Part shown: one piece after another, positions 20,460 through 34,109 of the stretch | Numbering within the stretch: position 1 is the first letter of the stretch | Layout: every line of letters begins with the position of its first letter | Assembly: GCA_045600585.1 (NCBI GenBank) | Contig: JAZRYE010000003.1 | Location: 772-64,771, forward strand | DNA: 64,000 nucleotides | Direction: 5' to 3' | DNA from: Bacilli bacterium | Lineage (GTDB): Bacteria; Bacillota_I; Bacilli_A; RFN20; CAG-826 | Made by a program: the position numbers and the translations under genes | The notes under the pieces: model-generated | Databases searched by the model: none | Told to the model about the DNA's origin: nothing | What the model saw: only the letters and a program-made list of their open reading frames with translations

Positions 20460-20473
20460 GCCAAACAAAAAGA

Positions 20474-20503
20474 CCCCCGGTTCATTGAACCGAGGGTTTT
20501 CTT
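20474..20503. terminator. Bidirectional Rho-independent terminator
   Basis: GC-rich hairpin (CCCGGTT-CATTG-AACCGAGGG) followed by TTTTCTT, between the convergent XRE and holin genes. Confidence 0.55.
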
Positions 20504-21649: not shown

Positions 21650-21713
21650 TAATAGGCACCTCCTAATGCGGCGTTAATCGAATCAATGTCGACATCGCCG
21701 TTCGTGTTGATGG

Positions 21714-22058
21714 TCACGTTGTTCGTGGTTTGAGAGTTATCTCGTCGATCGTCCCGTTCTCGAATAGGGTCTTAGCGTATTCGCATGACTCCTTCTCGCT
21801 CCAACCGAGCGACTTCTTGTAGTATTCGATGAGCATGTTTATGCCCTCTATGCTCGTTTGGGTCTTTTCAGAAAGCTCGAACACCTTGTTTCTTTCCTCG
21901 GGCAACAGCTCATATTTATCTGTTTCGGGGATGATTGCGCATCCTCCCCAGGTCCCGTGCATCTGGCCGATGTCGTCGACGAAGATGACCTTGCCGATCT
22001 TGCCTTCGTACTGAGGCTCCCCTTCCATGGATATGATTCTGACGTATCTTCCGACCAT
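21714..22058 (-). CDS. Phage-related hypothetical protein (about 114 aa)
   Basis: GGGAGG RBS 8 nt upstream of the MVGRYVRI start. No motif recognised. Confidence 0.35.
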   Translation of the reverse strand: MVGRYVRIISMEGEPQYEGKIGKVIFVDDIGQMHGTWGGCAIIPETDKYELLPEERNKVFELSEKTQTSIEGINMLIEYYKKSLGWSEKESCEYAKTLFENGTIDEITLKPRTT

Positions 22059-22105
22059 CCTCATTCCTCCCATGGCTAGGTCGAAAGGCCATACGACGTC
22101 TCTTT

Positions 22106-22160
22106 CCCCTAATACTAAGTATTATCTATTCTTGGAATTAAGTAACTTGAATTATTTCTT
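22106..22160 (-). promoter_or_regulatory. Repeat-element copy A (TAATACTAAGTATTA palindrome + conserved TTAAGTAAC...ATTATTTC arm)
   Basis: One of four copies of a ~55-65-bp conserved element, all in the same orientation. The palindrome is at 22110-22124, about 35 bp upstream of the 114-aa gene. Confidence 0.5.
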
Positions 22161-22262
22161 CTTCATATTAGGCGCGTTTCGCCAGGCACCAGAAAGGAAT
22201 CCGGGATAAGCCGTCTCAGAAGCCTTCCCGATGCCCGGCGGACGAAATCACGCCCAATGCCG

Positions 22263-22658
22263 TCAGGCGTCTATATGCGTCTGTTTTCCATCGTAATGGG
22301 CATTGATCCTCTCCCTGCACCACTCGAGGTTCGCGTCGTCGCACATCCTGGCGTATTCCTCCATCAGATGGTAGAGGGTGAGCATGTTGGCGTTCTCCTT
22401 TGCCCTCTCGAACCATTCGTGGCCCTTCTTGGGGTTCCTCTTCACCACCGCTCCGTGGAAATAGATGACTCCCAGGTCGAAGGCCATTATCGGCGTCGCG
22501 AGCTCATCGCCTGCGATCTCCTCTAGTCTATTGAGGGTTCCCTTTCCGCCCTTCCCTTCGTAAAGGGACAGTATGAGGTCGTAGAACTCGTGGGTGAGCT
22601 TCAGCTTCCTCATGTCTTCTTCGCTTAGGTGGAATGGCATCGTTGCTTTCTCGTCCAT
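22263..22658 (-). CDS. Sel1-like/TPR repeat protein (131 aa)
   Basis: Real start MDEKAT with an AGGAGG RBS; the longer ORF-track N-terminus is spurious. Sel1-like repeat (GHEWFERAKENANM...). Confidence 0.5.
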   Translation of the reverse strand: MDEKATMPFHLSEEDMRKLKLTHEFYDLILSLYEGKGGKGTLNRLEEIAGDELATPIMAFDLGVIYFHGAVVKRNPKKGHEWFERAKENANMLTLYHLMEEYARMCDDANLEWCRERINAHYDGKQTHIDA

Positions 22659-22674
22659 AGTCGGTTCCTCCTTT

Positions 22675-22688
22675 CGTGTATATACACG
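22675..22688. promoter_or_regulatory. Perfect 14-bp palindrome CGTGTATATACACG between the Sel1 paralogs
   Basis: Seen in sequence. No loop, so it is not terminator-like. Candidate operator. Confidence 0.3.
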
Positions 22689-22720
22689 CTCTAAAGGAAA
22701 GGAAAGTCCAGATGCATGTG

Positions 22721-23164
22721 CTAAGCCTGCGGATATTCCCTTACGAATGGGTGCTCTTCCATCTCCTTGAGCATCCTTGCGGCGAGCTTGCTCCCATGCC
22801 ATTTCGCTCTTCTTAAACAAGAGATGGATTCCTCCTCGTCCTCCAATGAGGCATAGATGTAAGAAAGCCGCAGGCAAGCGATGTGGTTGCCGTGCTTCTT
22901 TGCCTTCTGGAACCACTCCTCCGCGATCATCCTGTTCGGCTTGGTGCAGATGCCGTTTAGGTAGCATTCCCCGATGATTATCTCGTAAAGCGGAGCCGTG
23001 TAGATGGATCTTGCTATCTGAAGCATCCTGCCAAATTCATCTGATGTTCCTTTCCCAGACATGACTTTCTTAGCCAATCCGTCGAACTCCTCCATCAGCC
23101 TGAAGAGCTCTTTCTGGTAGGCTTTGGACCCTACCCTGTGTGCCTTTATTTCTGTCGTTTTCAT
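22721..23164 (-). CDS. Sel1-like repeat protein (147 aa), paralog of 22263..22658
   Basis: AGGAGG RBS. Sel1 motif (AEEWFQKAKKHGNHIACLRLSYIY). Shares architecture with the adjacent 131-aa gene. Confidence 0.55.
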   Translation of the reverse strand: MKTTEIKAHRVGSKAYQKELFRLMEEFDGLAKKVMSGKGTSDEFGRMLQIARSIYTAPLYEIIIGECYLNGICTKPNRMIAEEWFQKAKKHGNHIACLRLSYIYASLEDEEESISCLRRAKWHGSKLAARMLKEMEEHPFVREYPQA

Positions 23165-23188
23165 AAAAGGTCCTCCTACTATATATAA

Positions 23189-23207
23189 GGAGATACTATG
23201 TATCTCC
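23189..23207. promoter_or_regulatory. Palindrome GGAGATAC-TAT-GTATCTCC (repeat-family copy E)
   Basis: Perfect 8-bp arms around TAT. Shares the ATACTATGTAT core with copies B and D. Sits 25 bp upstream of the Sel1 gene start, at a GC-composition junction. Confidence 0.45.
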
Positions 23208-23364
23208 GTAGTGCCATTTTCCGATTTTTTACCAAAGAATTTTTCTATAAACTTTTTAATTATCTTTGATAATTACTTTTACTATAAATTTTTGAGATTG
23301 TGTCTGAGACGCAGTATCCGGCGGTACAATACGACATCTTTTTCCAAACAAAAAAGCGGCCAGA

Positions 23365-23381
23365 ATGACCGCTACGAATAT
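23365..23381 (-). terminator. Terminator downstream of the 75-aa gene
   Basis: AGCGG-N7-CCGCT hairpin followed on the minus strand by TTTTTTGTTTGG. Confidence 0.4.
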
Positions 23382-23389
23382 TGATGTGA

Positions 23390-23617
23390 TTAGTATTCGC
23401 CTCTGCAATATGCAGCCAATTCTTCATCACTCATTTCATTTGGATCGCCTAAAATAGAACCGGTAATTTCTCTTTTTCGATTATTGAGTGCATCAATTAT
23501 GCGGCTATATTCAGAACCAATGAGTCTCGATGAATCAATACCGAACCCAATGCTGTTTAATTCTCTAACATCATCGCAGTTCTTAATTTGTTCCAAAAGA
23601 TCCCAGTAATAGCTCAT
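23390..23617 (-). CDS. Hypothetical protein (75 aa)
   Basis: AGGAGG RBS at correct spacing. Acidic. No motif recognised. Confidence 0.4.
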   Translation of the reverse strand: MSYYWDLLEQIKNCDDVRELNSIGFGIDSSRLIGSEYSRIIDALNNRKREITGSILGDPNEMSDEELAAYCRGEY

Positions 23618-23749
23618 TCCAATTATCCTCCTATGCGCTTATAGTCTTTCTCAATAATCGATTTGTTAAATGGATAATCATTTGAGAAAAAGCATGACAA
23701 TTCTTAGGCAAAAGAAAAGCACCTCTTTTCATTTAAGAGATGCGATTTT

Positions 23750-23808
23750 CCTTTAATACTATGTATTAACCCTATTAAGAAATCAAATAACAGGGATTAT
23801 TTCAGGTT
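23750..23808 (-). promoter_or_regulatory. Repeat-element copy B (TAATACTATGTATTA)
   Basis: Palindrome at 23754-23768 plus the conserved downstream arm (…ATTATTTCAGGTT). Lies between the lipoprotein gene stop and the 75-aa gene. Confidence 0.5.
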
Positions 23809-23821
23809 AATACAGGGCATT

Positions 23822-24064
23822 CTAAATCCAAGGCAAATCGGTGTAGCTCGACGATGTCGATTCCGAATCTTCGGATGAATCATTGGATTCCTGCCCGATG
23901 CCGCTTTCCTCAAATGACGACTCGCGTTCCTCAGAATCCATGCTATCTGATGTATCAAAATCCGAATTCTTAATCGCGGTATCGCCTTGCTTGCAACCGT
24001 ATCCGCACGATGTCAACACCACCGTCAATAAGCAAATGAATATCTTTGAATATCTATTTTTCAT
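23822..24064 (-). CDS. Small acidic Ser/Asp/Glu-rich lipoprotein
   Basis: Likely start MKNRYSKIFICLLTVVLTSCG (lipobox LTSC). The mature part is highly acidic (DSMDSEERESSFEESGIGQESNDSSEDSES). Confidence 0.4.
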   Translation of the reverse strand: MKNRYSKIFICLLTVVLTSCGYGCKQGDTAIKNSDFDTSDSMDSEERESSFEESGIGQESNDSSEDSESTSSSYTDLPWI

Positions 24065-24126
24065 GTCCATGAATAGCAAAAAGCGATAACCCTTTATTGG
24101 AATTATCGCTTCTATAAACCTCAATT

Positions 24127-24270
24127 AATTGTTGTACCAGTTGTCGTAATCTTTGTCCCAGATTCCGTCCATATCGAATTCTTGGGTTCCGCTAGTGGCG
24201 ATTACGTCATGACTTTCGACGGCGATGATCTCAATTGAAGGCAATTTGAATTGTTTCTTTTCTTCCATGG
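24127..24270 (-). CDS. Small ORF (47 aa) with strong RBS
   Basis: GGAGGAACGACC ATG. Peptide MEEKKQFKLPSIEIIAVESHDVIATSGTQEFDMDGIWDKDYDNWYNN. Sits between the 699-aa secreted protein gene and the acidic lipoprotein gene. Confidence 0.35.
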
Positions 24271-24282
24271 TCGTTCCTCCGA

Positions 24283-26382
24283 TTAATCAATGTATCCTAA
24301 GGTTGTTAAGTAGTCGTATAACGGCTCGACGAGTTCGGATATTCCATCCATCTCGTGATAGGTTTTAACCAAATCTACAACACTTGATTCTTTTGTCTTA
24401 GTTGAATAGAACGTCTTTCCACCGGAAACAGCATAAGCTCTAATTGTGAATGTTTCAGTCAATCTTGCAGGATTTGCGAATACATCGCCCAATCCGATAA
24501 CGATATATTGTTTGTTGGTGCTCTCGTCAACATATGTATTAGCGTTGTATTGGTATGCCTTTGTTCTGGAACCAGTTGCCACTTCAATGCCGTAAGATGT
24601 TGGCGAATAAGCGGAGGCAAACTCATCCATGTTGTCCGTAGCCATTCTTAATCTGAAGTCAACATCCTCAATACCGCCAGCACCATATTCGATAACAAAT
24701 GAAGCGATATATTTAATTGTTGTGGATGATGTTAAAATTGCAGAGCCATCTTTCAATTCTACGCTGATTCCATTTATTTCCTCGCCAGAATCTTTATATG
24801 CTGTTACTGAGAATACCGATGTACCAGCTCCAGAGGAAATTGTTAAAGATGCACCTTTATACAATCTGAAGTCATCTTGCTTTAGCCACCAGGCTGTGCT
24901 TGTTCCACTATTCCAGGAAAAATCGATACCGGAATCATTAGCAAACGCATCATTCAAGCTCTTCGCGGTGTTGTTTGCCACAGAGTAGTTTTCATCTGTA
25001 ATTTCACCCATCGACACTTCCGTTTCATGGTTCTCTCTAGTATCTGTGTATCTATAAGAAAGGGACATCCAGGAATTAATGAGGTCTAGATCGTTTTGTA
25101 AAGAAACATCAGCCTCGCTATTCCAAACGGCTGTGAGAATCATGCTTTCGGAAACTTGATCTGCACCAAAATCCCACAAAGTTCCATTTTCTGTTTCCCA
25201 TCCAACAAAGGAATATCCTGTTTTTGTTGGTTCAGAAGGCTCGGCAAGATAACTTCCTTCAAGAACCTCAACATCGTCTCCGTATTGAGAACCATCATTC
25301 TCGTACATAACGGTATAAAATTCCTTGCAAACAGCGCCAGAAGCGAATTGAGGAGTGTCGCCTTTATAGTTAACGAGATAACCATCGATTTGGATTTTAG
25401 CGCCTTCAGCAATTTCATGTGTTGCAGCAGCCCTGTAACAGCTGATAATATCAGCTTCATCATCAATTAAATCGAATGAAAAATTTCCGTATTGTTCAGA
25501 ATATGGGGTTGTCACTTCACCAACTTCACCGATAACCTTATATCTATATGGAGAATTGCTAGTCCCAGTTAATTCACAAACGTCCAAAGCAACAGCAGCT
25601 GAAACAGGGTCAATATTACTTGGATAAACTTTGATTGTGATTTCGTTAGATGTCTCACCCGCTGAATTTGTAGCTGCTATTGTGACTGCACCATATTTTG
25701 TTGCGGTAAACTTGTTATCAACAACTGAACCAAACCCATCTGTAACATACCAGGACAAACCATCAATTGATCCTGATGCCGTCAAATTGACAGTTTCACC
25801 AAGCATAACAACATTGGTGTCTACCGAAATTTCAAGATCATTGTCATCTGTTGCCACGGTGTAGAAAACCAAATTTCTAGCACTTCCGTCATAGTTTGTA
25901 GCGGTATCGGAATTGTAATTTCTCCAATCAGCAGCATTATAGACACCAAGATATCTATTGTTAGCATTCTTTAATGAATTATTTTCCGTATAAGTCCAAG
26001 TTTGCTTTGTTGAACTAACCCTAGTTCCGTTATTAGCTGTTGTGCCATTCAAATAATCGCCATTATCATTTTGAATATAATAAGAAGAGCCGCTTTGAGT
26101 CACCGTCCACAAATTAGACGCATCAATGCTTGAAACATCTGTGAATTCGTGAGCAACAGGACATGCACTTGTCGAAGCTTCGGTTCCTAAATAATAGGTT
26201 TTGTTCTTGTAAGTTGTTGTAATAAGCAATTTGCCAACACCAAAATCACATTCCTGATAATCAGCGCCCTCAGCTTTAACAATTTGAGGATTTTTAAGCT
26301 CAAAAAAACGACTGCCAGTGTATCCTATGGCACCGAAAGCCATGAACGCTGCAGCAGTCACAAGTAATAATTTTTTCTTCAT
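24283..26382 (-). CDS. Secreted 699-aa surface protein with Listeria-Bacteroides (flg_new) repeat domain
   Basis: N-terminal signal/TM. A YSFVGWETENGTLWDFGADQVSESMILTAVW segment matches the GYtFxGW...LyAkW repeat. The rest is beta-rich, Thr/Ser/Asn-rich. Confidence 0.55.
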   Translation of the reverse strand: MKKKLLLVTAAAFMAFGAIGYTGSRFFELKNPQIVKAEGADYQECDFGVGKLLITTTYKNKTYYLGTEASTSACPVAHEFTDVSSIDASNLWTVTQSGSSYYIQNDNGDYLNGTTANNGTRVSSTKQTWTYTENNSLKNANNRYLGVYNAADWRNYNSDTATNYDGSARNLVFYTVATDDNDLEISVDTNVVMLGETVNLTASGSIDGLSWYVTDGFGSVVDNKFTATKYGAVTIAATNSAGETSNEITIKVYPSNIDPVSAAVALDVCELTGTSNSPYRYKVIGEVGEVTTPYSEQYGNFSFDLIDDEADIISCYRAAATHEIAEGAKIQIDGYLVNYKGDTPQFASGAVCKEFYTVMYENDGSQYGDDVEVLEGSYLAEPSEPTKTGYSFVGWETENGTLWDFGADQVSESMILTAVWNSEADVSLQNDLDLINSWMSLSYRYTDTRENHETEVSMGEITDENYSVANNTAKSLNDAFANDSGIDFSWNSGTSTAWWLKQDDFRLYKGASLTISSGAGTSVFSVTAYKDSGEEINGISVELKDGSAILTSSTTIKYIASFVIEYGAGGIEDVDFRLRMATDNMDEFASAYSPTSYGIEVATGSRTKAYQYNANTYVDESTNKQYIVIGLGDVFANPARLTETFTIRAYAVSGGKTFYSTKTKESSVVDLVKTYHEMDGISELVEPLYDYLTTLGYID

Positions 26383-26597
26383 AAATTACCCCTTTCGATA
26401 AAAACAGGCAGTAATCTATTGTCGCTTTGTTAATCGACTAGCATAGTGCGGACTTCTGGGCGCCGCGTAGAGACTCATCAACCTCTGTTACTGATGGATA
26501 TACGCCTGTACAACCACAATATACGCGCATTTTCGTTGCTGCACAAAACATTTTTTATAATTTGTTTCGATAGAATCCGCATTTTTTGACAATTGAG

Positions 26598-26637
26598 ACA
26601 TCAAAAAAATCTAGAGTGGGCCACGCTTTTTTGATGT
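26598..26637 (-). terminator. Nested inverted repeat / terminator downstream of the zinc-ribbon gene
   Basis: Outer arms ACATCAAAAAA / TTTTTTGATGT enclose the inner palindrome GTGGGCCAC. A T-run follows on the minus strand. Confidence 0.4.
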
Positions 26638-26660
26638 TTTGTGTCCCATCTAGATCGTTT

Positions 26661-27638
26661 TCATTTTTTTGTTTCTGTAACACGTCTGCGACCGTACTTA
26701 GGCCTCTTGAAGCAGACAGGGCATTTCATCATGCCCCTCGATCTCGTCCTTATCTCGCATGACCATTCCGCACCGCACGTTGGGCATTTCCAGAAAGCGA
26801 TCTTCATGCTTCCTGATCTTAGCTTTTCAGGATATAAGCCGATGGCGGCGTTCTTCTCGAAGTCCCACTCCCCCATCAGCTCCGGATGCTCGGTCCTGAA
26901 ATCGTTCATGCCGGTGAGTGTCTTGGTGTTCTTCTTCGAGCAATATGGGCAATTTACGCCTTTCTTCCTCTTTGACATCGTGCACAGGAAGCTATGGCCT
27001 TTCCTGCATGTCCACCACCTTGGGATATGGACGTCCTTGTTGTAAGGGACCTCGGATGCCTTCATTCCGTTTTTGACCGCATCGAATTCCCTGGCCAGCT
27101 TCTTATTTACGTCGGCCAGCGTGAATATTGGCCTAGGCGGCTTTTTCACTTGAATAGCCCTCTGCCCTTTGGCTGCGCGCCTTTTCGCGGTCTCCGCCTT
27201 CTGGGCCTCCATCTTGCATTTCCAGCATGTTAGATGCGTGACGAACTCCTTCGGCATCTCCCTGAGCTCATGGCCGTGCTTGCACCTGAAATAGAACCTC
27301 TGCGTCGAATTTGCGAGGACATGGGACGCGTCGATCCCGTTCTTCTCCTCGTCGAACATCTCCGCCATCTCAGGCGAAACGGTCTTTATGTCGTTGTAGC
27401 CAGGCCACACCTTCTTGTTGAGGCAATACGGGCATTCGCTGACATGTCCGTTCTTGACCCTGTTGCAGACCTGGACCCTCCAGGTATGCCCGTTCTTGCA
27501 TCTCCACCACACGTATCTGGAGCTGCCCAAAGTCAGAGTATCCAAGTCGATATCCTTATTTAATGCGCGATCAAATTCGTCGAGAAGCCTTTCGTTGTGG
27601 CTCTCTATGCACCAGTCCTTGAATAGAATCTTATCCAT
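26661..27638 (-). CDS. Multi-zinc-ribbon (treble-clef, DUF4379-like) protein
   Basis: 325 aa, GC-rich. At least four repeats of W/F-x-C-K/R-x-G-H-x-W/F ... CPYC/CWKC/CPVC modules. Confidence 0.55.
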   Translation of the reverse strand: MDKILFKDWCIESHNERLLDEFDRALNKDIDLDTLTLGSSRYVWWRCKNGHTWRVQVCNRVKNGHVSECPYCLNKKVWPGYNDIKTVSPEMAEMFDEEKNGIDASHVLANSTQRFYFRCKHGHELREMPKEFVTHLTCWKCKMEAQKAETAKRRAAKGQRAIQVKKPPRPIFTLADVNKKLAREFDAVKNGMKASEVPYNKDVHIPRWWTCRKGHSFLCTMSKRKKGVNCPYCSKKNTKTLTGMNDFRTEHPELMGEWDFEKNAAIGLYPEKLRSGSMKIAFWKCPTCGAEWSCEIRTRSRGMMKCPVCFKRPKYGRRRVTETKK

Positions 27639-27720
27639 ATGTCTATTATAGGATTTTTGCGTTTTCGGAGTACAAGCGTTTTTTTAAAACTTATCCGGAG
27701 CCTTTGCCTTCCAAAATAAA

Positions 27721-27744
27721 AGACCAGATTTTGTCTTCTGGTCT
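27721..27744 (-). terminator. Terminator of the defence operon
   Basis: AGACCAGA-N8-TCTGGTCT hairpin followed on the minus strand by TTTTATTTTGG. Confidence 0.5.
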
Positions 27745-27808
27745 TTAATACATAGTATTAATTATCTCTTGAACTTAAATAACTACTATTATTTCAGGTT
27801 TATTTGTC
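27745..27808 (-). promoter_or_regulatory. Repeat-element copy C (TAATACATAGTATTA)
   Basis: Palindrome at 27746-27760 plus the conserved arm (CTTGAACTTAAATAACT...ATTATTTCAGGTT). Lies between the GIY-YIG gene stop and the operon terminator. Confidence 0.5.
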
Positions 27809-28645
27809 GTTTGTAGAATCAATATCCTTTAGTTTGATTCCATCTTTATTTTCCCACTTATCATTTCCGCTTGAAGGTGTTCCTAAAACAATCGAAGCTG
27901 CTGCTGACGGGGATTTGAACTCGTAGTTTTTAGTAAACTTGTGATCGACAATTGTTCCATCGCTTTCCAGCAACTTGCGAAGAACAGGCCAACCTGGGAC
28001 GTTGGTTTCAAAAGAAGGCGTCGTGTCTTCAGATGTAATTGATCCCTTTGTGACCGTGAATCCGTTATCTGATGGGTAACCAGATGCATTAGCCTTACGT
28101 CCTTTGCAAAAAAGAAGTTTTGACTCATCAACGCTATTAGTTTTTTCTTCAAGAAAAGTGTATCCCAATGCCTTTAGAATCAACTTCATGTTTTCAATGA
28201 ATACATCGAGCATTGCTAATTCAGATTTCTTTAAGGAGAAGTTCTTATCGACTGATTTTGTGTGAAGAACAATGTCTCCATTTTTCTTCATTACGTTATA
28301 CGAATAACTTTCGATGTATTTTGCGTATGTTTCATTAAATTTTGAGTTACCAAAACAGATAGCCGTAGCCCAGTAAAAATCTTCTTTTCTCTTTTTTGAG
28401 TTATAGTCGCTTATATGAACGAGCAATCTGTCTTTAATGTTTTTAGATTCTCCGACATAAACGCCACCATCTTCGCAAAGCAAAAAATACACTCCGCACC
28501 AAGATATTTCGGGAATATCCGAATCTTTTATTTTAATACGAGGGATGCGTATCGTTTTAGTATCCCAGTTTGAAAGATCTAACGTGAGGATTCCGTCAGC
28601 TTCACCGTCTTCGAGAAACAACTCTATAGTTTTTCCGTGAGCCAT
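27800..28645 (-). CDS. GIY-YIG nuclease-domain protein with C-terminal DUF4357
   Basis: GIY-YIG core (GVYFLL...GVYVGESKNIKDRLLVH) and a C-terminal SPSAAASIVLG...W segment typical of DUF4357. Confidence 0.65.
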   Translation of the reverse strand: MAHGKTIELFLEDGEADGILTLDLSNWDTKTIRIPRIKIKDSDIPEISWCGVYFLLCEDGGVYVGESKNIKDRLLVHISDYNSKKRKEDFYWATAICFGNSKFNETYAKYIESYSYNVMKKNGDIVLHTKSVDKNFSLKKSELAMLDVFIENMKLILKALGYTFLEEKTNSVDESKLLFCKGRKANASGYPSDNGFTVTKGSITSEDTTPSFETNVPGWPVLRKLLESDGTIVDHKFTKNYEFKSPSAAASIVLGTPSSGNDKWENKDGIKLKDIDSTNDK

Positions 28646-28661
28646 AAATATTCCTCATTTA

Positions 28662-30227
28662 TTAGATAAGAACAACACTGCCAAATGGGAATGTTGTACG
28701 AATAATGTTAGCAATTTGTTTTTGTCTAGTTTCGACATATGCCTTTCTATCGGTTTCAAATTTTGCGAAATCAACAGTGTTCATGGTTGTTCTTAAAAGA
28801 GCGTCCTTTGCAATAATTGTTGTGTACTTAGGAAGTTTGACCGTGAGATAGTTGTTTGAAATGGATTTGTTAACTGATTCACAAAGTAAGAATTGATTAC
28901 CGATATTATTAATAATTTCTTTTTGGTCGGCGGTATTTGTTGGCCATCCGTTTGTAGCCCAAACCGGTTTAGGTGTTTGTGGATAAACATGTTCGAGATT
29001 AACCTTTGAAATATTGATCGTTCCAGAAGTGTTGCAAATAATAGCATCCATAACAAGTAAAGCTTTTCTAATTCCTGGAGTTGCATTTCCGGTTCCACCA
29101 ATGCTGTTAACAAAGTCAGAATATGCCATTTTGCATGAGCTAGCATTATTGTTGATATATGTTGCAATCGCTAACGAAATATCATCAGCACTTTTTCCTT
29201 GATTAATTAAATTAATCACGTCGTTCATGAGATACTTTAATAAACTTGGTAATCCACCGGTAAGACTTAATACTACACTTAACATGCACAATGGGAGTAC
29301 AACCTTTTCTAAATATTCCCTGTTTGTTGTAGTATCAATTCCTTTCATTGCTAAAACATTAAGAACATCATAAAGCGAAGTTCTATTTATATAGCAGAAC
29401 ACGGATGTGATAGGATTCTTTTCGAGTAGCGACAAAGTGTTGAGCGTTGTAACGAATTTGCTAAACTCAACACTCGATTTAGTAATGTGATCTCTCAAGA
29501 AAGTGATAATGCCAATGTTATCAAAATTCTTTGAAGCATCACCAGTTATATACTTGTAGTAACTAACTACTGCCATTTTTATATCTTTTACTTTGGCAGA
29601 GATAGGTATGTTGTAAATCTTAGAATATTGTTTAATTGCAGTTTGAATGATTTCATCTTTTGTTAATGGTTTTCCACCAGTATTTATTTGTTGGAAAATA
29701 ACGAAAGCGTCGTCAGCATTCTGACATTTTTTTAAATAAACAAAGAGATTATTTTTGAGAACATCAATGATATCACTCAATATCCCAGAATTAGTGTCAA
29801 TCCATTCTTTGAAGTGCAAATAGATGGTCTTAAATGGAGCACAAACATAATTTGTAAAATTGCATTGATACTTTGCATTGTTGTCAGCGATATCATATTC
29901 AATATCAAAGAGGTCTAGTTTAGCTAAGGGAAGAGATTTTTCGTCTATGTAATCATTGATTGCTTTAAACAAATTATTTAAAGTGACGATTCTTTGTTGG
30001 CCGTCAGCGAACATGTATTTAACGCCATCTTCATAATAAATAAAGTCGAGTAAATATAACTCCTTAGTCTTGTCGTTAACAACATCAATGATGTCCAATA
30101 ACATCTGAGTTGTTTGTGTTGGCTTCCAATCATAAAAACGTTGGAAAATTGGAATGCCGATTTTGTGTGTTGTGAGCGAATAGATATTTACATAGCTAAA
30201 TCCAACACTGCTTTTTTCAATTATCAT
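28662..30227 (-). CDS. DUF262/DUF1524 two-domain nuclease (GmrSD / SspE / BrxU-like type IV restriction family)
   Basis: N-terminal DUF262/ParB-like signature (GIPIFQRFYDWK). C-terminal DUF1524 His-Me-finger-like motifs (LEHVYPQ ... NQFLLCESVNKSISNN). Confidence 0.7.
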   Translation of the reverse strand: MIIEKSSVGFSYVNIYSLTTHKIGIPIFQRFYDWKPTQTTQMLLDIIDVVNDKTKELYLLDFIYYEDGVKYMFADGQQRIVTLNNLFKAINDYIDEKSLPLAKLDLFDIEYDIADNNAKYQCNFTNYVCAPFKTIYLHFKEWIDTNSGILSDIIDVLKNNLFVYLKKCQNADDAFVIFQQINTGGKPLTKDEIIQTAIKQYSKIYNIPISAKVKDIKMAVVSYYKYITGDASKNFDNIGIITFLRDHITKSSVEFSKFVTTLNTLSLLEKNPITSVFCYINRTSLYDVLNVLAMKGIDTTTNREYLEKVVLPLCMLSVVLSLTGGLPSLLKYLMNDVINLINQGKSADDISLAIATYINNNASSCKMAYSDFVNSIGGTGNATPGIRKALLVMDAIICNTSGTINISKVNLEHVYPQTPKPVWATNGWPTNTADQKEIINNIGNQFLLCESVNKSISNNYLTVKLPKYTTIIAKDALLRTTMNTVDFAKFETDRKAYVETRQKQIANIIRTTFPFGSVVLI

Positions 30228-30229
30228 AA

Positions 30230-30613
30230 TTATTTCCTTCCCGAATATACGATTCTTTCGCCTTTTTTAGATTCATTAATTTCAGAATATGCATCTATTC
30301 CTTTTTGATTTGCCAAGCCATCTGGATGAAAAGCATTGCTTGACCACATATTTCTATTGAGTACCCTGTATCGCTCCTGCTTATTGCTCGGTAGCTTTTG
30401 AACATAATAAGGGGGTAATTTGTCTTCATTCTCATTGAGAATTTCATAATAAACGCCTATAGCTGTGTCGCTATCGACTCTTGATGGATAAACACTCTTG
30501 ATGTCTTCAACGGCGATGTCACGCAAAATTATCCAAAAAGTATCAACATCACTTTTCTTCTCCGATGCGTTTGACAATCTCCCTATATTTTTTCTTAAAA
30601 CGTCTCCAAACAT
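30230..30613 (-). CDS. Hypothetical protein (127 aa) inside the defence operon
   Basis: Tightly packed (2-5 bp gaps) between the methyltransferase and DUF262 genes. No motif recognised. Confidence 0.4.
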   Translation of the reverse strand: MFGDVLRKNIGRLSNASEKKSDVDTFWIILRDIAVEDIKSVYPSRVDSDTAIGVYYEILNENEDKLPPYYVQKLPSNKQERYRVLNRNMWSSNAFHPDGLANQKGIDAYSEINESKKGERIVYSGRK

Positions 30614-30618
30614 AACTA

Positions 30619-31725
30619 CTATCCATCCTTTCTAAGTAAAAATAAGTATTCTGTTACATGAATATCTCTATCTCTTAAGTTTCGGCAACCCCTGAAAACA
30701 TTATAATTCTGGTCGAACACGCGGACATATCCAAGCTCATCCAGCATATTAACCATTTCGTCAAAGGTTATAAATCCTTCAGAATTGTAAGAAATCAAAA
30801 CATATGTGGCATTAACATTTCTGCAAACATCAGCTAATGCATTTAAGGCTTCTGTCTTTTTGTTATATGAAGATTTATTCCACCCAACAGGAATACCGGA
30901 AACATTAGATATCTCAGCTGGTTCTTCATAATTGGTGAGAAGATTTAGCATAAAATAATTGGAACTATAAGGATGCTGGTTATATGGAGGGTCCATATAA
31001 GCAAGATCCACGTGAGGAATCTGTCTGCAAACTTGATTTGAGTCACCCTGTAAAACGTGAACTTCGCTACTATTCATACTCAAAATCGGTTTCTTTACCT
31101 CAATATCAGCAAGGATTCTTTTGAGCGCATTACGGCCGTCACCGCCAAACTGCCCTATTTTAGTTTGTGAGTTTTTATAAAAGCCTTTGAAAACACCAGA
31201 TGTGTTATTTTTTGTAGAAGCTTCATATAAAAGAGGTGCCAACAAAAGTGTCTTATATGGTTCAGGAACTTCATCTAAATATTGTCTTGCAGTATCTAAA
31301 TATTTTGCGTTTCTGCTTGTATAGAAAACCCTTTCTCCAGCCTGGATGTTTTCATCATCTTGAGGAGCATAGAGTCTGTAAATAAATCCATTCTCATAAA
31401 GGGGTTCATTATCCAATCTGTTCTTTAGATAATTGAACCAATACTCCAACTCTTGTTGATTGATTTCGTTTTCATTTGTCAAATAACATTTATTGATTAC
31501 GCAACAATAATCTTCTAGATCGTTTGTGTACAATACTGAAGAGTGCTGTTTTAAATAACGAGAAACAACTCCAGAGCCAGCAAAAACATCAAAAGAAGTA
31601 AGACGTTCGACGCCCAATTCTTCTTTCACTAAAGATACGGCATTATCTATAAAGTCCAATAAAGATCTTTTGTTTCCTAGATAGGTAATTATTTGGTCAG
31701 TTAAAAATTCTTTTCTTTCAGCCAT
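30619..31725 (-). CDS. Dam-family (D12 class, alpha-type) N6-adenine DNA methyltransferase
   Basis: YLGNKRSLLDFI (Dam motif X, cf. WAGGKYPLLDDI), FAGSG (motif I), DPPY (motif IV). The motif order is alpha-class. Confidence 0.75.
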   Translation of the reverse strand: MAERKEFLTDQIITYLGNKRSLLDFIDNAVSLVKEELGVERLTSFDVFAGSGVVSRYLKQHSSVLYTNDLEDYCCVINKCYLTNENEINQQELEYWFNYLKNRLDNEPLYENGFIYRLYAPQDDENIQAGERVFYTSRNAKYLDTARQYLDEVPEPYKTLLLAPLLYEASTKNNTSGVFKGFYKNSQTKIGQFGGDGRNALKRILADIEVKKPILSMNSSEVHVLQGDSNQVCRQIPHVDLAYMDPPYNQHPYSSNYFMLNLLTNYEEPAEISNVSGIPVGWNKSSYNKKTEALNALADVCRNVNATYVLISYNSEGFITFDEMVNMLDELGYVRVFDQNYNVFRGCRNLRDRDIHVTEYLFLLRKDG

Positions 31726-31918
31726 TTTTTGTTACCTCCTCTAATCCCGCTTCTTTAAAAAGTTCTCTTAATTTTCTTTTTGATTTCATCGTTGGTTCAA
31801 ATAACCCTTGTTCCCAGCGGTTGACGCTTGCAAAAGAAACGCCGAGTTTTTTTGCCAATTCCTCTTGGGTACAAAGAACGATTTCACGATATTTCTTAAT
31901 CATCTCTGGATAATTCAT
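31718..31918 (-). CDS. Controller (C-protein-like) XRE HTH regulator
   Basis: Real start MNYPEM, 5 nt downstream of an AGGTGAG RBS; the ORF-track N-terminus is a non-coding leader. HTH (TQEELAKKLGVSFASVNRWEQG). Overlaps the methyltransferase start by 8 bp. Confidence 0.6.
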   Translation of the reverse strand: MNYPEMIKKYREIVLCTQEELAKKLGVSFASVNRWEQGLFEPTMKSKRKLRELFKEAGLEEVTKNG

Positions 31919-31939
31919 ATGTCTCACCTTGGATATATC

Positions 31940-31985
31940 TACACAATTATAACACTTTCTTACACAATTTACTATGTAAATAGAA
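31940..31985 (-). promoter_or_regulatory. Defence-operon promoter with C-box-like palindrome (repeat-family copy F)
   Basis: Sense strand shows an extended -10 TGTTATAAT. The palindrome TTTACATAGTAAA (31968-31980) overlaps the -35 region. This is the classic controller-protein autoregulation layout. Confidence 0.5.
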
Positions 31986-32007
31986 AAATTAAAGGGAAGC
32001 GGACGAA

Positions 32008-32436
32008 TTATGTCCTGTCTTCCCACTTCTTATTAATTCTATTAATAATCTGACTTATGTATTGCTGGCTGACTCCTGACTCAAACGCTATGTCATCCTG
32101 GGTCTTGTCCCTGAAATAGTACATAACGAAAACAGAGGACTCCCTATCCGTAAGGGAATCCTTGAATGCGACTAGGACTTTTTCTGATTCCTCCACCGCC
32201 TTTATCTTATTCTGGATTTTCATCTCCCTATCCATGAGGCCAGGCATCTTGTCGTGCCACTCATGGCGTCCGGGGATGCCGCCGTATACAGGCCCTGGGA
32301 TTGCGATCATCAATCTTCTGACTTCGGATAGGTCCTCTTCCAACCTTCTGAGCCTTACCTTGTTGAATCTCACGAAACGGGCGAATTCCTCAAGGCTACA
32401 GGCCCCAGGAATCGAATAGTCTTTCCATTCTCTCAT
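32008..32436 (-). CDS. Phage late-transcription regulator-like protein (sigma-70 region-4 / ArpU/RinA-like)
   Basis: C-terminal region-4-like HTH (SVFVMYYFRDKTQDDIAFESGVSQQYISQIINR). GC-rich. Its 3' end overlaps the start of the low-GC C-protein gene. Confidence 0.45.
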   Translation of the reverse strand: MREWKDYSIPGACSLEEFARFVRFNKVRLRRLEEDLSEVRRLMIAIPGPVYGGIPGRHEWHDKMPGLMDREMKIQNKIKAVEESEKVLVAFKDSLTDRESSVFVMYYFRDKTQDDIAFESGVSQQYISQIINRINKKWEDRT

Positions 32437-33319
32437 CGTACCCCTCCATCTGCTTCAGGTTGTCCCTATAGGCCGCCATGAAATACTCGGGGACCGACGC
32501 TATCGTCTTCTTGTTTTCCACCACCCTGGCCCTCACGTACTTGAAGACCCTCATCGATAGTTCTCTCTCATAGCATCTGTCCACTTCCATAAAAAGCTCG
32601 TTGAGCTCATCGATCCTAGGCTCATAGATATCCAGGACACGGTCATGGAGAAGGCAAGCTAGATAATAATGCGCCTCGAATGGGAGTCCCCCTTTATCGT
32701 ATTTATCTTCTTTATCAGCTTTTACTTTACCTTTTACTTTTACTTTTACTTTGTGTACCTCTGCTGACATAAATGCACCTTGAGCAGGATTATTGTCTGC
32801 ATTTATTCCGCTGAGCGGTATTTCTGTCGGCATTAACTCCCCCTGAGCGGGATTATCGTCGACATTTATCCCCTTCGATGTTTTTTCGCCCGAACCGTAT
32901 GTTTTGTATACCGATTCCTCGTCTTCCGGGGTCAATATCCAGTGCGGGCGCTCCCTCTGCTTCCTCCTTTGGGTGCTGGCCAGGAACTGCTTCTGGATTC
33001 CCTTTGAGGTGATTATCCCCTTATCCAGCGACAATGAATCTATGATGTCGAGCTTCACGAAATCCCTCAGAATCCTATAGACGTAATCCAGGTCCTTGTT
33101 CGCTTCCTTGAACCTGATGTCGTATGAGATGAGATACGCCATCCTCTCCAAATCGCACTCCAAAAAATACCCGCTGTCATAGACCTTCGCGAGCAGCATG
33201 AAATAAACCATCACCGCGTCAGGGCCATGGTCGTACATGAGCCTCACTATCTTGGGGTCGCTGAACACCTTCACGTCCACCGGAAAATAATCGAGCCCTT
33301 CCTTCAATCTTCTGGGCAT
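32396..33319 (-). CDS. Phage replisome-organizer N-terminal domain protein (Lin1244/DUF4373-like)
   Basis: N-terminal FPVDVKVFSDPKIVRLMYDHGPDAVMVYFMLLAKVYDSGYF matches the phage replisome-organizer N-terminal family. Confidence 0.5.
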   Translation of the reverse strand: MPRRLKEGLDYFPVDVKVFSDPKIVRLMYDHGPDAVMVYFMLLAKVYDSGYFLECDLERMAYLISYDIRFKEANKDLDYVYRILRDFVKLDIIDSLSLDKGIITSKGIQKQFLASTQRRKQRERPHWILTPEDEESVYKTYGSGEKTSKGINVDDNPAQGELMPTEIPLSGINADNNPAQGAFMSAEVHKVKVKVKGKVKADKEDKYDKGGLPFEAHYYLACLLHDRVLDIYEPRIDELNELFMEVDRCYERELSMRVFKYVRARVVENKKTIASVPEYFMAAYRDNLKQMEGYDERMERLFDSWGL

Positions 33320-33351
33320 GGCCTTTCCTCCTTTCTTGTAAGAGGGATGGA

Positions 33352-33415
33352 AACCTAAATACTATGTATTAGACATTGTCTCCATCCCCTTGGACTTAAG
33401 TAACTGACATTATTT
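33352..33415 (-). promoter_or_regulatory. Repeat-element copy D (AATACTATGTATT)
   Basis: Palindrome at 33358-33370 plus the conserved arm (CTTGGACTTAAGTAACTGACATTATTTGC), 35 bp upstream of the replisome-organizer start. Confidence 0.5.
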
Positions 33416-33551
33416 GCTCTTGTTTTTTAAGAGGTCTTTCCTGATGAACGCGTCCACTTCGGATTGCTTGAATCTGTATGTGGTGCCCTTGGCTGGGTGA
33501 AGGTTCACGGGAACTATCTTCCCCTCCTTGATGAACGCCGTCATCCTCTTT
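33412..33551 (-). pseudogene. Excisionase-family HTH fragment (wing half only) fused out of frame to the integrase fragment
   Basis: Frame +1 relative to the integrase encodes MTAFIKEGKIVPVNLHPAKGTTYRFKQSEVDAFIRKDLL (Xis/AlpA-like wing). The N-terminal helix is absent. Confidence 0.4.
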
Positions 33552-34109
33552 CTTGCCTCTGATGTAGACGTAGGTCTTCCCGCTTAGGCTTAGGAAATCC
33601 TGGACTTCCATGTTCGCTATCTCAATGGTCCTAAGGCCCATAGTGACAGCGGTGACGAGCATCGCGTAGTCCCTCTTCTCGATGAGTCCGCCTTTTTCGG
33701 CTCTCCCCCTCGCATATGCTAGAAGCCTTCTTGCGTCGGGCGCTTCCAAAGGGACCCTCTTGAAAAGGTTGTCGATGTGCTCGCTTCTGAGCGTGCTAGC
33801 GATGTTCGGGTAATAGTCGAGTTCGTACGCCCATTTGTATAGGCCCCTGACTATGACCTTGCACTTCTGCGCCATCGTGAGGTGCGTTTCTCCCGGCTTG
33901 ATGCACTTGATGAATTCGATGAAAGCGATGACGTTTTCTTCTAATGGTTTTTCAATGTTTCTGTCCTTGAGGTACTTCCCGTATCTTCTAAGAATCTCGC
34001 TATATGTCTTCTTCTTGTGCTCGCTGCCGGACAAGCACATGATGTACTTCTCGATGAGCTCGTCGTGCGGAAGAGCGTCTTCCAGCAGTTCTTTTCTTGT
34101 TATCTTCAT
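33540..34109 (-). pseudogene. Truncated tyrosine integrase (N-terminal SAM-like domain + box I only)
   Basis: About 190 aa covering the SAM-like domain and the R-box (AMLVTAVTMGLRTIEIANMEVQDF). The HxxR and catalytic Tyr region are missing. The frame switches to the Xis-like fragment after VYIRGK. Confidence 0.6.

Follow-up and report, generated by a model that had tools for sequence, protein, structure and literature searches.

We found that four palindromes and their adjoining arms in a degraded prophage are, as judged by comparison with their homologues, copies of a single bipartite junction element of ~65 bp (elements A–D) that is lineage-specific and previously undescribed. An earlier sequence-only reading of the window, by which we mean the whole 64-kb stretch of DNA analysed here, had proposed a cassette-boundary sequence as one explanation, and comparison of about 90 copies supported this, with unrelated cargo, arrays, swapped neighbours and breakpoints inside the arm. 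We place at an even chance the proposal that this bipartite prophage element of gut Bacilli is a site-specific recombination site for accessory-module exchange.

Element copies in the prophage

In window order, the prophage starts with a weak, sub-threshold holin-like ORF, a distal tail protein (Dit), DUF4314 and two Sel1 genes, continues through DUF4379, cargo operons, a sigma-70 region-4 protein, Lin1244_N and an integrase-like ORF, and ends at a large serine recombinase adjoining tRNA-Lys. Relative to a related phage, it has lost terS-like and ParB-methyltransferase genes at a deletion junction (22076/22077) just downstream of element A. We use H1 for the arm and H2 for the palindrome of the earlier reading, and the features are as follows.

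20000–35742, no strand assigned: degraded prophage carrying elements A–D
22110–22164, minus strand: element A; H1 at ~22132–22164, inverted repeat around T-TCAA-G; H2 TAATACTTAGTATTA at 22110–22124
23189–23207, minus strand: E, a lone H2-type palindrome, GGAGATAC-ATA-GTATCTCC, without the arm
23258–23274, minus strand: P1, a 7-3-7 palindrome, AATTATC-AAA-GATAATT (gene orientation), upstream of E
23719–23743, minus strand: intrinsic terminator after element B, homologous to the terminator at 9694–9725 of the related locus L002
23754–23809, minus strand: element B; H1 at ~23777–23809, centre CCCT; H2 at 23754–23768
27719–27746, minus strand: intrinsic terminator after element C, directly adjoining it
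27746–27801, minus strand: element C; H1 at ~27769–27801, centre AGTA; H2 at 27746–27760
31968–31980, minus strand: F, TTTAC-ATA-GTAAA, overlapping the -35 region of the TGTTATAAT promoter
33357–33422, minus strand: element D; H1 at ~33390–33422, centre GTCA; H2 at 33357–33371

The four copies named by the earlier reading are real, at counts far above chance: the palindrome TAATACWWWGTATTA with its adjoining arm occurs four times inside the 16-kb prophage, against about 0.1–0.2 expected. Pattern counts over the window gave 5 matches to TAATACWWWGTATTA with at most one mismatch (0.08 expected), 7 to ATACWWWGTAT (0.18 expected; 5 of the 7 in the island) and 5 to the arm core AAATAAT-N4-GTTA (0.19 expected), four of the latter adjoining A–D, all on the minus strand. 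A whole-element nhmmer profile run on the 64-kb window matched A–D alone, and neither this profile nor the arm-core count revealed a copy of the composite element in the 48 kb of host flank, so that within the window the element is restricted to the island.

All four copies have the same orientation, as had been noted, and it is also that of the genes. Element C lies between a stop codon and its terminator as described, H1 starting 5 nt past the stop codon of a GIY-YIG/DUF4357 gene and H2 abutting the terminator, and the same arrangement holds for B, which is 3′ of the stop codon of a 100-aa ORF and followed by a terminator. Elements A and D are indeed upstream of leftward genes, their palindromes ending 37–52 bp before the start codons. 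Element A is 90.7% identical to L002 10535–10620, and in an intact relative its site precedes a terS-like gene. In element D, H1 and the end of the 237-aa integrase-like ORF overlap, the H1–H2 spacer exceeds the usual length by 10–11 bp, H2 carries one mismatch at an outer base, and 38 nt separate H2 from the start of the Lin1244_N gene downstream. H1 also occurs without H2, both in L002 (4680–4716), where the orthologue of the element C arm follows a homologous gene, and in L105, a locus syntenic with element D, where it precedes the Lin1244_N gene.

Two broader statements about placement proved too sweeping. Not every cassette junction is marked, since no element accompanies the terminator and promoter present where the sigma-like gene meets the XRE operon, and the junction at 26.4–26.65 kb lacks one too. 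Copies B and C do sit exactly at switches in GC content, but A and D have ~50% GC on both sides; some copies fall at such switches because AT-rich cargo lies between phage blocks of ~50% GC.

The six palindromes had also been taken as a single family, of which A–D stand as one bipartite element while the two others fare differently. E, which stands 13 nt before the first Sel1 gene's ribosome-binding site and is kept with the centre TTT in L002 (9956–9976), is by its sequence a palindrome-only relative of the element. P1 is also conserved in L002, and its ATC/GAT core is the core of the H2 variants in L086, L088 and L114. F has only TAC-TAT-GTA in common with the family, a core that occurs 8 times in the window against 2.7 expected, so F alone is inseparable from chance; we do not count it as a member, and it is probably the own operator of the XRE-led operon downstream of its promoter (XRE, D12 methyltransferase, 127-aa ORF, GmrSD, GIY-YIG).

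The other explanation put forward earlier was a dispersed network in which the palindromes serve as operators of an XRE/Cro-type repressor of the island. H2 is a 15-bp odd-centred palindrome, typical of helix-turn-helix dimer sites, and two palindromes overlap promoter positions, F at the -35 region of the XRE operon and P1 at a predicted -10 hexamer, GATAAT; for F alone an operator is plausible. As an account of the palindromes in general we consider it quite improbable, and it is not supported for A–D: a promoter-hexamer check found no sigma-70-type promoter overlapping any of the four, -35/-10 overlap being seen, unlike at Cro/CI/XRE operators, which as a rule form clusters at divergent promoters, only at F and P1, and B, C and many homologues stand directly before terminators. 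Moreover, different H2 half-site variants occur within one phage, a variant with a 4-bp centre recurs, and for many loci with the element the DNA fetched contains no XRE gene.

Anatomy of the element

Followed in the direction of transcription, the element starts 2–12 nt past the upstream stop codon, or overlaps it, and extends through H2 either to the next gene's ribosome-binding site or to a point just short of an intrinsic terminator. H1 is an imperfect inverted repeat of ~15-4-15 bp around T-N4-G, for example TCAATGAGAAATAAT-CCTT-GTTATGTGTCATAGA. Its inner ATAAT/GTTAT is invariant, an invariance that is partly imposed because the patterns with which copies were gathered fixed AAATAAT-N4-GTTA and ATAC-N3-GTAT, and its 4-bp centre varies in sequence and is fixed in length, being 4 bp long in 91 of 91 sites with other spacings at background level. 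H2, TAATAC-N3-GTATTA, follows 16–17 bp after H1 (27 bp in two lineages), which places the two centres ~32 bp or 42–43 bp apart, equal to three or four helical turns; GTATTAAAGGAG forms a fixed junction with the Shine-Dalgarno sequence. Half-sites of H2 vary (TAATAC, GAGATAC, ATTATC, GATTAC, TAATC), several coexisting within one phage, and the 4-bp-centre variant was seen in L056, L087, L088 and L110.

Within the H1 centre, bases 2 and 3 carry 0.9 bit of information each and their neighbours 0.25–0.35 bit, with C at base 2 in 50 of 64 sites and T or A at base 3. The symmetry centre falls between these two bases, and H1 is palindromic in this register, with 72% of cells paired compared with 36–53% when the register is slid.

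A pairing analysis of the aligned copies detected no covariation in H1, and its RNA folds were weak and inconsistent, which favours H1 as a protein-binding site in DNA. We also weighed whether the element works as transcribed RNA, in antitermination, processing or stabilisation, either as a nut-like linear box plus hairpin before terminators or as a 5′ stabiliser hairpin by the Shine-Dalgarno sequence. The gene orientation, the position inside operons and just before terminators, and the tolerance of any H2 centre sequence, occasionally of 4 nt, would suit such a role. It is nonetheless unlikely: Rfam yielded no match (only tRNA reached the gathering score, and nothing appeared at the elements with E up to 5), minimum free energies were only -2 to -11 kcal/mol, with A and D no better than shuffled sequences, there were no G-U pairs and no strand-specific signal, and constraints such as the strict centre length of 4 nt and the gap of 16/17 or 27 nt between H1 and H2 are DNA-like.

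Homologues and homology breakpoints

The approximately 90 homologous copies are confined to metagenomes, a few viral contigs and MAGs from uncultured gut and rumen members of the Bacilli, Erysipelotrichaceae and Mollicutes. The element's carriers are temperate phages of such Bacilli and islands that derive from these phages. A composite pattern scan of species-representative genomes returned 56 loci with ~26 true copies, all from MAGs of Bacilli, Erysipelotrichaceae or Mollicutes, and a scan of metagenomes returned 46 loci; the nhmmer total was 88 copies, 71 of them non-identical. Searches for phage and plasmid matches found none.

The genes flanking the copies are unrelated to each other, including GmrSD, methyltransferases, restriction enzymes, Fic, LRR proteins and lipoproteins, and several loci (L054, L031, L056, L035, L059, L101, L088) contain arrays of the form element-gene-element-(gene)-element-terminator, with element orientation following transcription in all copies. 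No identical centres were found among 20 adjacent pairs within one locus, which is not significant alone, as sharing is expected in ~14–19% of pairs. The centres before terS recur in the order ACAA/ACAG, then CCTT, then TTTA/TCTC/TATA, which may simply reflect common ancestry of the phages. Related phages have the same slots occupied, and many carry a conserved unit of H2, linker and terminator before terS; in 20 kb of an intact relative there are just two copies, each of them upstream of terS, the late genes being free of the element.

Between L012 and L044 the element and terminator are 97% identical and the adjacent chromosomal genes 66–68% identical. Such a difference (97% between genomes with 66% identical adjacent genes), together with the two hairpin-capable modules and the uniform orientation, might point to selfish behaviour, with a REP-, MITE- or PATE-like repeat spreading on its own and merely piling up in non-essential DNA. 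We hold this to be very improbable, because terminal inverted repeats and target-site duplications are not visible, related phages hold the same slots, and those loci that were annotated show no RAYT or TnpA-like gene. Nor, in contrast to REP/BIME sequences, is the element spread through the core chromosome, with the 48 kb of core host DNA in the window free of copies and only two present in 20 kb of the intact phage.

By comparing relatives, we observed downstream units of 97–100% identity behind differing upstream genes, as well as the reverse, and homology of up to 99.5% that ends within H1. Downstream sharing of 125 nt or more was seen in 41 pairs, and in every one of them homology is lost at -16 to 0 relative to AAATAAT, never between H1 and H2. 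The outer left arm of H1 differs in the 28 pairs with downstream-only homology, and the H1 centre and right arm are common to every pair with at least 95% identity downstream. Where homology is upstream only, centre bases 1–3 are common to 7 of 8 pairs and base 4 differs in 5, the right-arm family also switching in 4 of these 5. Both kinds of junction meet at one site in a triad in which L003b matches L106a at 99.5% upstream and L008b at 99.5% downstream (centres ACAG, ACAA and ACAA). The independent exchange events underlying these pairs are few, ~5 with upstream sharing and 10–12 with downstream sharing, and other breakpoints exist at +24 to +30, about +53 and +76. Taken as alignments of homologous loci, these comparisons showed that the element separates exchangeable modules, that inheritance splits H1, the left arm passing on together with the upstream gene and the right arm, like the spacer and H2, together with the downstream gene or terminator, and that the exchange junction maps to the H1 centre. 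By the same alignments it is the arm that matters for exchange, not the palindrome to which the sequence-only reading gave first place.

These breakpoints also bear on a doubtful but possible alternative, in which the element is an expression module, that is, an intercistronic or 5′-UTR signal or protein operator of phage early and cargo operons. Its function would explain the conservation, and modules would be exchanged only incidentally, when short-homology recombination (phage Rad52-like recombinases could perform it) is followed by selection for intact genes. The element spans the interval from stop codon to ribosome-binding site with GTATTAAAGGAG fixed at the Shine-Dalgarno sequence, its orientation is always that of transcription, H2 and its variants retain symmetry, E and a third L002 palindrome precede genes without H1, and the H2-linker-terminator unit before terS is conserved in many phages, all as expected of such a module. 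However, a sigma-70-like promoter is absent, RNA folding is weak (z-scores +1.3 to -2.1) and H1 lacks covariation, and the boundary falls within the inverted repeat rather than at its edge, the outer left arm going with the upstream gene. In 4 of 8 upstream-sharing pairs the junction is between centre bases 3 and 4 with no flanking identity on the right, and H2, although equally conserved (15–22 identical nt), never starts downstream-sharing homology. Crossovers in the ~10–20 nt of near-identity of H1 could likewise arise by relaxed homologous recombination and selection for intact genes.

Known systems and the proposed role

Sites of the pdif/dif type have an 11-bp arm, a 6-bp spacer and an 11-bp arm, with palindromic inner positions (PMC13141974). 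H1 can be laid out as a 28-bp Xer site (ATGAGAAATAA-TCCTTG-TTATGTGTCAT and variants), with the inner ATAA-N6-TTAT in 91 of 91 sites. Manual alignment with the B. subtilis dif sequence (PMC3025954) matched 12–15 of 28 positions, 6–7 of 11 in the right arm and 4 of 11 in the left, with TTATGTAAACT as the XerD arm; the host lineage's own dif may differ from this reference. As in the XerC/XerD-dependent pdif/dif modules of Acinetobacter plasmids and in IMEX elements, these are short arm-spacer-arm sites (...ATAA-N6-TTATGT...) that flank discrete accessory modules, with spacers that vary among the sites of one replicon and no recombinase gene in cis, none being linked to the sites in the annotated loci. 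Both inferred parents share the centre here except for its fourth base. Whereas pdif sites alternate and occur in plasmids, ours are in direct orientation throughout and belong to phages of Bacilli; their arms are longer (~15 bp), the conserved arm is the left and not the XerD-like right, and a second palindrome, H2, is attached. The dif site is single per chromosome and lies at the terminus, whereas several sites per locus are found here.

Integron attC sites are conserved in structure and not in sequence, with boxes RYYYAAC and GTTRRRY and a crossover at G|TT, and attC clusters lacking an integrase exist. The present element resembles them as an imperfect inverted repeat right after each cassette ORF, in co-oriented single-gene cassettes of ORF then site at the array loci, with adaptive or defence genes as cargo and a cassette boundary within the repeat, so that a circular cassette would re-form a whole site. 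In contrast to attC, its sequence is highly conserved, it has AAATAAT on the left and GTTAT(G/T)T on the right in place of the two boxes, the junction is at the fourth centre base or left of it, upstream of G|TT, and a folded single strand finds no support in covariation or RNA folds. Some modules are multi-gene with their own promoter, and intI, attI and Pc were not found in the limited windows around the arrays; within the 8–20 kb covered there, we saw no IntI-like gene and no recurrent tyrosine recombinase. No circular cassette or empty site was observed among the loci compared.

Serine recombinases use sites such as res site I, of 12-4-12 layout, and the att sites of the large enzymes; in these crossover sites an inverted repeat surrounds a central dinucleotide that has to match between the partners, and the flanking half-sites change places. 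Resolvases need both of their sites on a single molecule. Likenesses are the inverted repeat with its 4-bp centre, the best-conserved middle dinucleotide and a possible accessory site nearby; genes for large serine recombinases are present in the window, in L105 and in L116, and a junction after centre base 3 fits. However, a 2-bp overlap would allow the first centre base to differ, yet it is identical in all recent downstream-sharing pairs, and resolvase action would delete cassettes. The recombinase genes themselves are at the island end only, as expected for integration at tRNA-Lys.

Lambdoid phages carry morons and have short conserved module-boundary sequences at mosaic joints. Here too, conserved phage genes have extra genes of foreign base composition between them; some of these, like the XRE-led operon, bring a promoter and a terminator of their own. 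Short conserved intergenic sequences likewise mark mosaic joints. Unlike the lambdoid boundaries, the site is a defined, symmetric one of ~34 bp with a fixed centre length, the same site family occupies several slots in many phages, and breakpoints are confined to a window of 4–15 nt.

In the module-exchange model that we favour, H1 would be the crossover site for a putative site-specific recombinase supplied in trans. Its layout appears to fit a tyrosine/Xer-type core site (11-6-11, ATAA-N6-TTAT) and would fit a serine recombinase site I (12-4-12) less well. Matching centre sequences would set which sites can recombine, so that modules would be swapped between phages slot by slot and neighbours not deleted. 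H2 would be a feature of the downstream unit, as an accessory protein site or a short hairpin near the ribosome-binding site. For the prophages of uncultured gut Bacilli, the element marks where accessory genes, such as those for defence systems and surface proteins, are swapped.

Copies of the element in the window and their prophage

The conserved element described in the sequence-only reading is real for its four copies in the window (A, B, C and D; element length about 65 bp), which have the sequence and positions reported there. In gene orientation, an arm that forms an inverted repeat around an N4 centre (H1) is followed by a palindrome (H2). The sequence TAATACWWWGTATTA, with at most one mismatch, occurs five times in the window against 0.08 expected, ATACWWWGTAT seven times against 0.18 (five of the seven within the prophage island), and the arm core AAATAAT-N4-GTTA five times against 0.19, with four of these matches adjoining A–D, each on the minus strand. 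Across the 64 kb window, a whole-element profile returned A–D only. Two ATACWWWGTAT palindromes outside the island (48685-48695 and 50840-50850) are intragenic, lie without H1 in a low-GC (29-33%) cluster, and are probably chance matches; the fifth arm-core match, at 58526, is intragenic and has no partner motif.

The region at 20-35.7 kb is a decayed prophage adjoining tRNA-Lys. Its genes run on the minus strand throughout, the serine recombinase excepted, and the element is therefore described in gene orientation. The features are:

Minus strand: distal tail protein, weak sub-threshold holin-like ORF, DUF4314, two Sel1 proteins and DUF4379
Minus strand, cargo operon: XRE, D12 methyltransferase, 127-aa ORF, GmrSD and GIY-YIG/DUF4357 protein
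Minus strand, remaining genes: sigma-70 region-4 protein, Lin1244_N and the integrase-like ORF
33396-34109, minus strand: the integrase-like ORF (237 aa), with a weak Phage_integrase match and a homologue at the equivalent position of L105, a homologous locus
34097-35742, plus strand: large serine recombinase, as two overlapping ORFs (34097-34546 and 34543-35742)
23258-23274: a further 7-3-7 palindrome over a predicted -10 hexamer, about 70 nt upstream of palindrome E

The split of the large serine recombinase suggests a frameshift or pseudogene, and the 237-aa ORF may be a genuine family rather than the remnant of an integrase, since L105 has its homologue in the matching place. For a strain-level comparison of the island, five window proteins were looked up by exact sequence, with no match on record.

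The two remaining palindromes of the sequence-only reading fared differently. E is an H2-type palindrome without H1, located 13 nt 5' of the Sel1 ribosome-binding site and retained with a different centre in L002, part of a related viral contig. F overlaps the -35 region of the cargo-operon promoter and is statistically indistinguishable from a chance match.

Two further features of the prophage were observed. At 32008-32050 (minus strand), the sigma-70 region-4 gene ends in an intrinsic-terminator-like hairpin (GGGAAGACAGGAC...GTCCGCTTCCC plus a T run); downstream lies the XRE-led cargo operon with its own TGTTATAAT promoter, where two AATTGTGTA direct repeats stand on either side of the -10 hexamer. 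This combination of a terminator hairpin and an XRE-led operon with its own promoter is the classical moron layout. Separately, a purine-riboswitch-like match (RF00167; 26424-26525, minus strand), spanning the full model length and scoring 31.5 bits against a gathering score of 37 (E = 0.098), lies directly 5' of the gene for a 699-aa List-Bact-repeat/PKD surface protein (24283-26382), and could represent a divergent purine-riboswitch-clan RNA whose context is unusual.

Anatomy, distribution and cargo

An alignment of 26 copies, together with base counts over 64 distinct copies, gave the consensus TYAATGAG-AAATAAT-N4-GTTAYKT..YWAGAAAA-(spacer)-TAATAC-N3-GTATTA-A(A/G) in gene orientation. H1 is an inverted repeat, imperfect, with arms of about 15 bp and a 4-bp centre, alternatively laid out as 11-6-11 with inner ATAA/TTAT. 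The gap from GTTAYK to H2 is 16 or 17 bp and the symmetry centres of H1 and H2 lie about 32 bp apart; D and, independently, the homologous copies L003b and L008b carry an unrelated 10-11 bp insertion that extends this distance to 42-43 bp; in helical turns, the two distances equal three and four. The upstream ORF's stop codon either lies 2-12 nt before the element or is overlapped by it, and the element ends either 0-3 nt before an AAGGAG ribosome-binding site (A, ahead of DUF4314, and D, ahead of Lin1244_N) or 0-25 nt before an intrinsic terminator (B and C). The GIY-YIG homologue in L002 is followed by the same H1 without H2, showing that the two parts are separable.

A close relative, the 36-kb viral contig L001/L002, carries homologues of A and E and a third palindrome after its ParB-methyltransferase gene. 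Alignment by blastn against L002 reveals a deletion in the prophage, with its joint at 22076/22077, immediately 3' of A in gene orientation, where the window lacks 2.8 kb of L002 (10620-13404) containing the terS-like and ParB-methyltransferase genes, and where the sequence after A is fused directly to the DUF4314 ribosome-binding site.

Scanning one genome per species with the composite pattern gave 56 loci, about 26 of which are clear homologues, all of them in MAGs of uncultured gut or rumen bacteria that carry the label Bacilli, Erysipelotrichaceae or Mollicutes; the remaining loci look like chance matches. The genome of the window falls in that same Bacilli bacterium MAG lineage. Loci L003, L081, L104 and L106 stem from rumen and biogas samples. 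A metagenome scan added 46 loci, and nhmmer brought the total to 88 copies (71 non-identical), with the caveat that the search patterns fixed AAATAAT-N4-GTTA and ATAC-N3-GTAT and so impose ascertainment at those positions. In a search for cultured relatives, a family-i copy had no match among 50,697 phage records and 72,556 plasmid records; a viral scan with a looser palindrome returned mostly chance matches, nothing similar is present in Rfam, and a literature search yielded no relevant account of conserved intergenic boundaries between prophage cassettes. We conclude that this is a new, lineage-restricted junction element. It is more conserved than its surroundings, as seen between two chromosomal loci (L012 and L044), where element plus terminator (94 bp) are 97% identical and the adjacent genes 66-68%. 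At these loci and a third (L045), one element family with its terminator lies about 235-630 nt from a convergent tRNA-Ser(GGA) gene in several MAGs, a chromosomal context that is not obviously prophage.

The genes flanking one copy bear no relation to those flanking the next, and they represent typical cargo: three GmrSD kinds, a methyltransferase-like protein, DpnII and PD-(D/E)XK restriction enzymes, an HNH nuclease, Fic, a CdiI immunity protein, BspA-type LRR proteins, List-Bact-repeat lipoproteins, a membrane XRE protein, a Bro/ANT antirepressor, and many proteins without family assignment. Several loci contain arrays of the form element-gene-element-(gene)-element-terminator. In L002, L003, L031 and L041 the last element and terminator stand just 5' of a terS-like and a ParB-methyltransferase gene. 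Over 20 kb of an intact viral contig, two copies occur, both 5' of terS, and the late genes have none. The island's right part shows synteny with L105, where the order is serine recombinases, integrase-like ORF, an inserted antirepressor, H1, Lin1244_N, sigma-like gene, further genes, GmrSD, element and LRR gene. From the arrays, the terS-proximal copies and the L105 synteny, the sites occupy module boundaries in the early and cargo region.

Two other observations concern these loci. The AT-rich segment L002 1-9700 contains a type I restriction-modification locus comprising three hsdS fragments plus a tyrosine recombinase, in a phase-variation shufflon layout, and encodes a P-type ATPase and a MatE transporter, with H1 lacking H2 after both the GIY-YIG and the ATPase genes; the segment may be host DNA or else a cargo array of very large size. 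In several phages (L003/L008, L031, window 22076-22105 and L002 10586-10625), the stretch between the last terminator and terS carries a conserved motif, ACCTCGGTAGTRRCTAGGT or CGACCTAGGTTSAG, that might be a packaging site or late-promoter signal.

Symmetry and homology breakpoints

The palindromic symmetry of H1 is specific to its register: 72% of cells pair, compared to 36-53% when the register is slid. An RNA hairpin would share this symmetry, but covariation in H1 scored equal to shuffled alignments, predicted RNA folds are weak (-2 to -11 kcal/mol), and those of A and D are no better than for shuffled sequences, so this reading was rejected. The 4-bp centre was present in 91/91 sites across 435 kb of loci with other spacings at background, a constancy partly imposed by the search patterns. 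Taken together, the lack of covariation, the weak folds, the fixed centre and the whole-helical-turn spacing favour a protein-bound DNA site over an RNA structure.

H2 keeps its symmetry through two-sided changes (GAGATAC/GTATCTC, AGATAC/GTATCT, GATTAC/GTAATT, TAATC/GATTA and ATTATC/GATAAT), although the variants were picked as palindromes, which inflates this test. Multiple H2 variants occur within one phage and a 4-bp H2 centre recurs, which argues against a single dimeric repressor at H2. The proposal that A–D form an operator network for XRE regulators is not supported, given these variants and a consensus promoter scan. In that check, -35/-10 pairs were sought in both orientations, by hand and by the scan: GTTATK-16/17-TAATAC has the right spacing for a sigma-70 promoter, but both its hexamers are poor and the 27-bp variants misfit, and the sigma-70 reading was rejected. 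The element could possibly serve as a promoter for the phage's own sigma-like protein. Any likeness to a replication-origin nonanucleotide or an N4-type hairpin promoter is presumably superficial. A small ORF or a supply of stop codons was discarded for want of a consistent reading frame, and a MITE or IS end because neither terminal inverted repeats nor duplicated target sites can be seen. The element is unlikely to be a selfish repeat, as there are no terminal repeats, the window's 48 kb of core host DNA has zero copies, and the slots are fixed across related phages.

Positions at which flanking homology is lost are numbered here from the first A of AAATAAT. All 41 pairs sharing at least 125 nt downstream lose homology at -16 to 0, and none breaks between H1 and H2 or at H2. 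In the 28 pairs with zero upstream homology, as defined by blastn, the outer left arm differs, while the centre and right arm are identical whenever downstream identity is at least 95%. Conversely, in the eight pairs sharing upstream sequence only (86-99.5% identity), the outer left arm is common to both members; centre bases 1-3 agree in 7/8, base 4 differs in five, and in four of these five the right arm switches family. A triad at a single site illustrates both sides, with L003b 99.5% identical to L106a upstream and to L008b downstream; the centres in the triad are ACAG, ACAA and ACAA. A cassette of 46-aa and 185-aa ORFs (98-100% identical) stands behind three upstream contexts (L031, L087/L088 and L101), an LRR block (99-100% identical) behind three others, and one methyltransferase gene precedes two distinct downstream units. 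Exceptional breakpoints lie at +24 to +30, about +53 and +76. On these comparisons, the inherited unit comprises the right arm, H2, the ribosome-binding site, the ORF(s), the stop codon and the next left arm, with the module joint falling within the H1 inverted repeat.

The main rival casts the element as an expression module and treats its short conserved sequence as no more than a guide for relaxed homologous recombination. Against it stand the position of the joint inside the inverted repeat, junctions after centre base 3, and the absence of joints at H2 although H2 is equally conserved. The sequence-only reading had also offered a cassette-boundary role for module exchange; the comparative evidence supports that role, with H1 and not the palindrome as the active part.

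H1 as a candidate crossover site

The favoured reading is that H1 serves a trans-acting recombinase as its crossover site. The ATAA-N6-TTATGT layout and the behaviour of the centre resemble pdif, where exchange occurs between identical-spacer sites and one arm-adjacent mismatch is tolerated (PMC13141974; for general dif features, PMC3025954). Two points speak against an Xer-family site: every H1 copy is in direct orientation, and identity to dif is low (12-15/28 positions). A serine-recombinase site is possible: a 12-4-12 layout can be drawn, conservation within the H1 centre peaks at the middle dinucleotide, and three of the phages encode large serine recombinases; the identical first centre base in recent downstream-sharing pairs fits this model more poorly.

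Adjacent sites in one locus share a centre in 0/20 pairs, which is not statistically significant alone, and a recurrent order of centres (ACAA/ACAG, then CCTT, then TTTA/TCTC/TATA) may reflect shared phage ancestry. Distinct centres within a locus would prevent cassette deletion and keep gene order. We raise, as a tentative and rather speculative proposal, that temperate phages of gut Bacilli carry a dedicated module-exchange system built on H1 and addressed by its centres. A few fixed H1 sites would separate modules for lysogeny, replication, cargo and packaging, with a distinct 4-bp centre at every slot (ACAA, CCTT, then TTTA/TCTC/TATA before terS); a site-specific recombinase acting in trans would join only sites with matching centres, and co-resident phages and prophages could thus trade defence and surface-protein cassettes slot by slot with gene order intact. 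To our knowledge, no integron-like cassette systems have been described in Bacilli, and such an addressed system, if true, would be an integron- or pdif-like principle new for phage genomes and for this phylum.

The ~65-bp element provides a sequence tag for metagenomic cargo hot spots, many of which code for proteins of unknown function, and a short, testable DNA substrate for finding the recombinase. Should H1 prove to be a genuine recombination site, it would supply a mechanism by which defence and surface-protein genes turn over in prophages of a large group of uncultured gut and rumen bacteria through defined sites, not random illegitimate recombination, and would extend the integron/pdif principle of cassette exchange to phages and to Bacilli.
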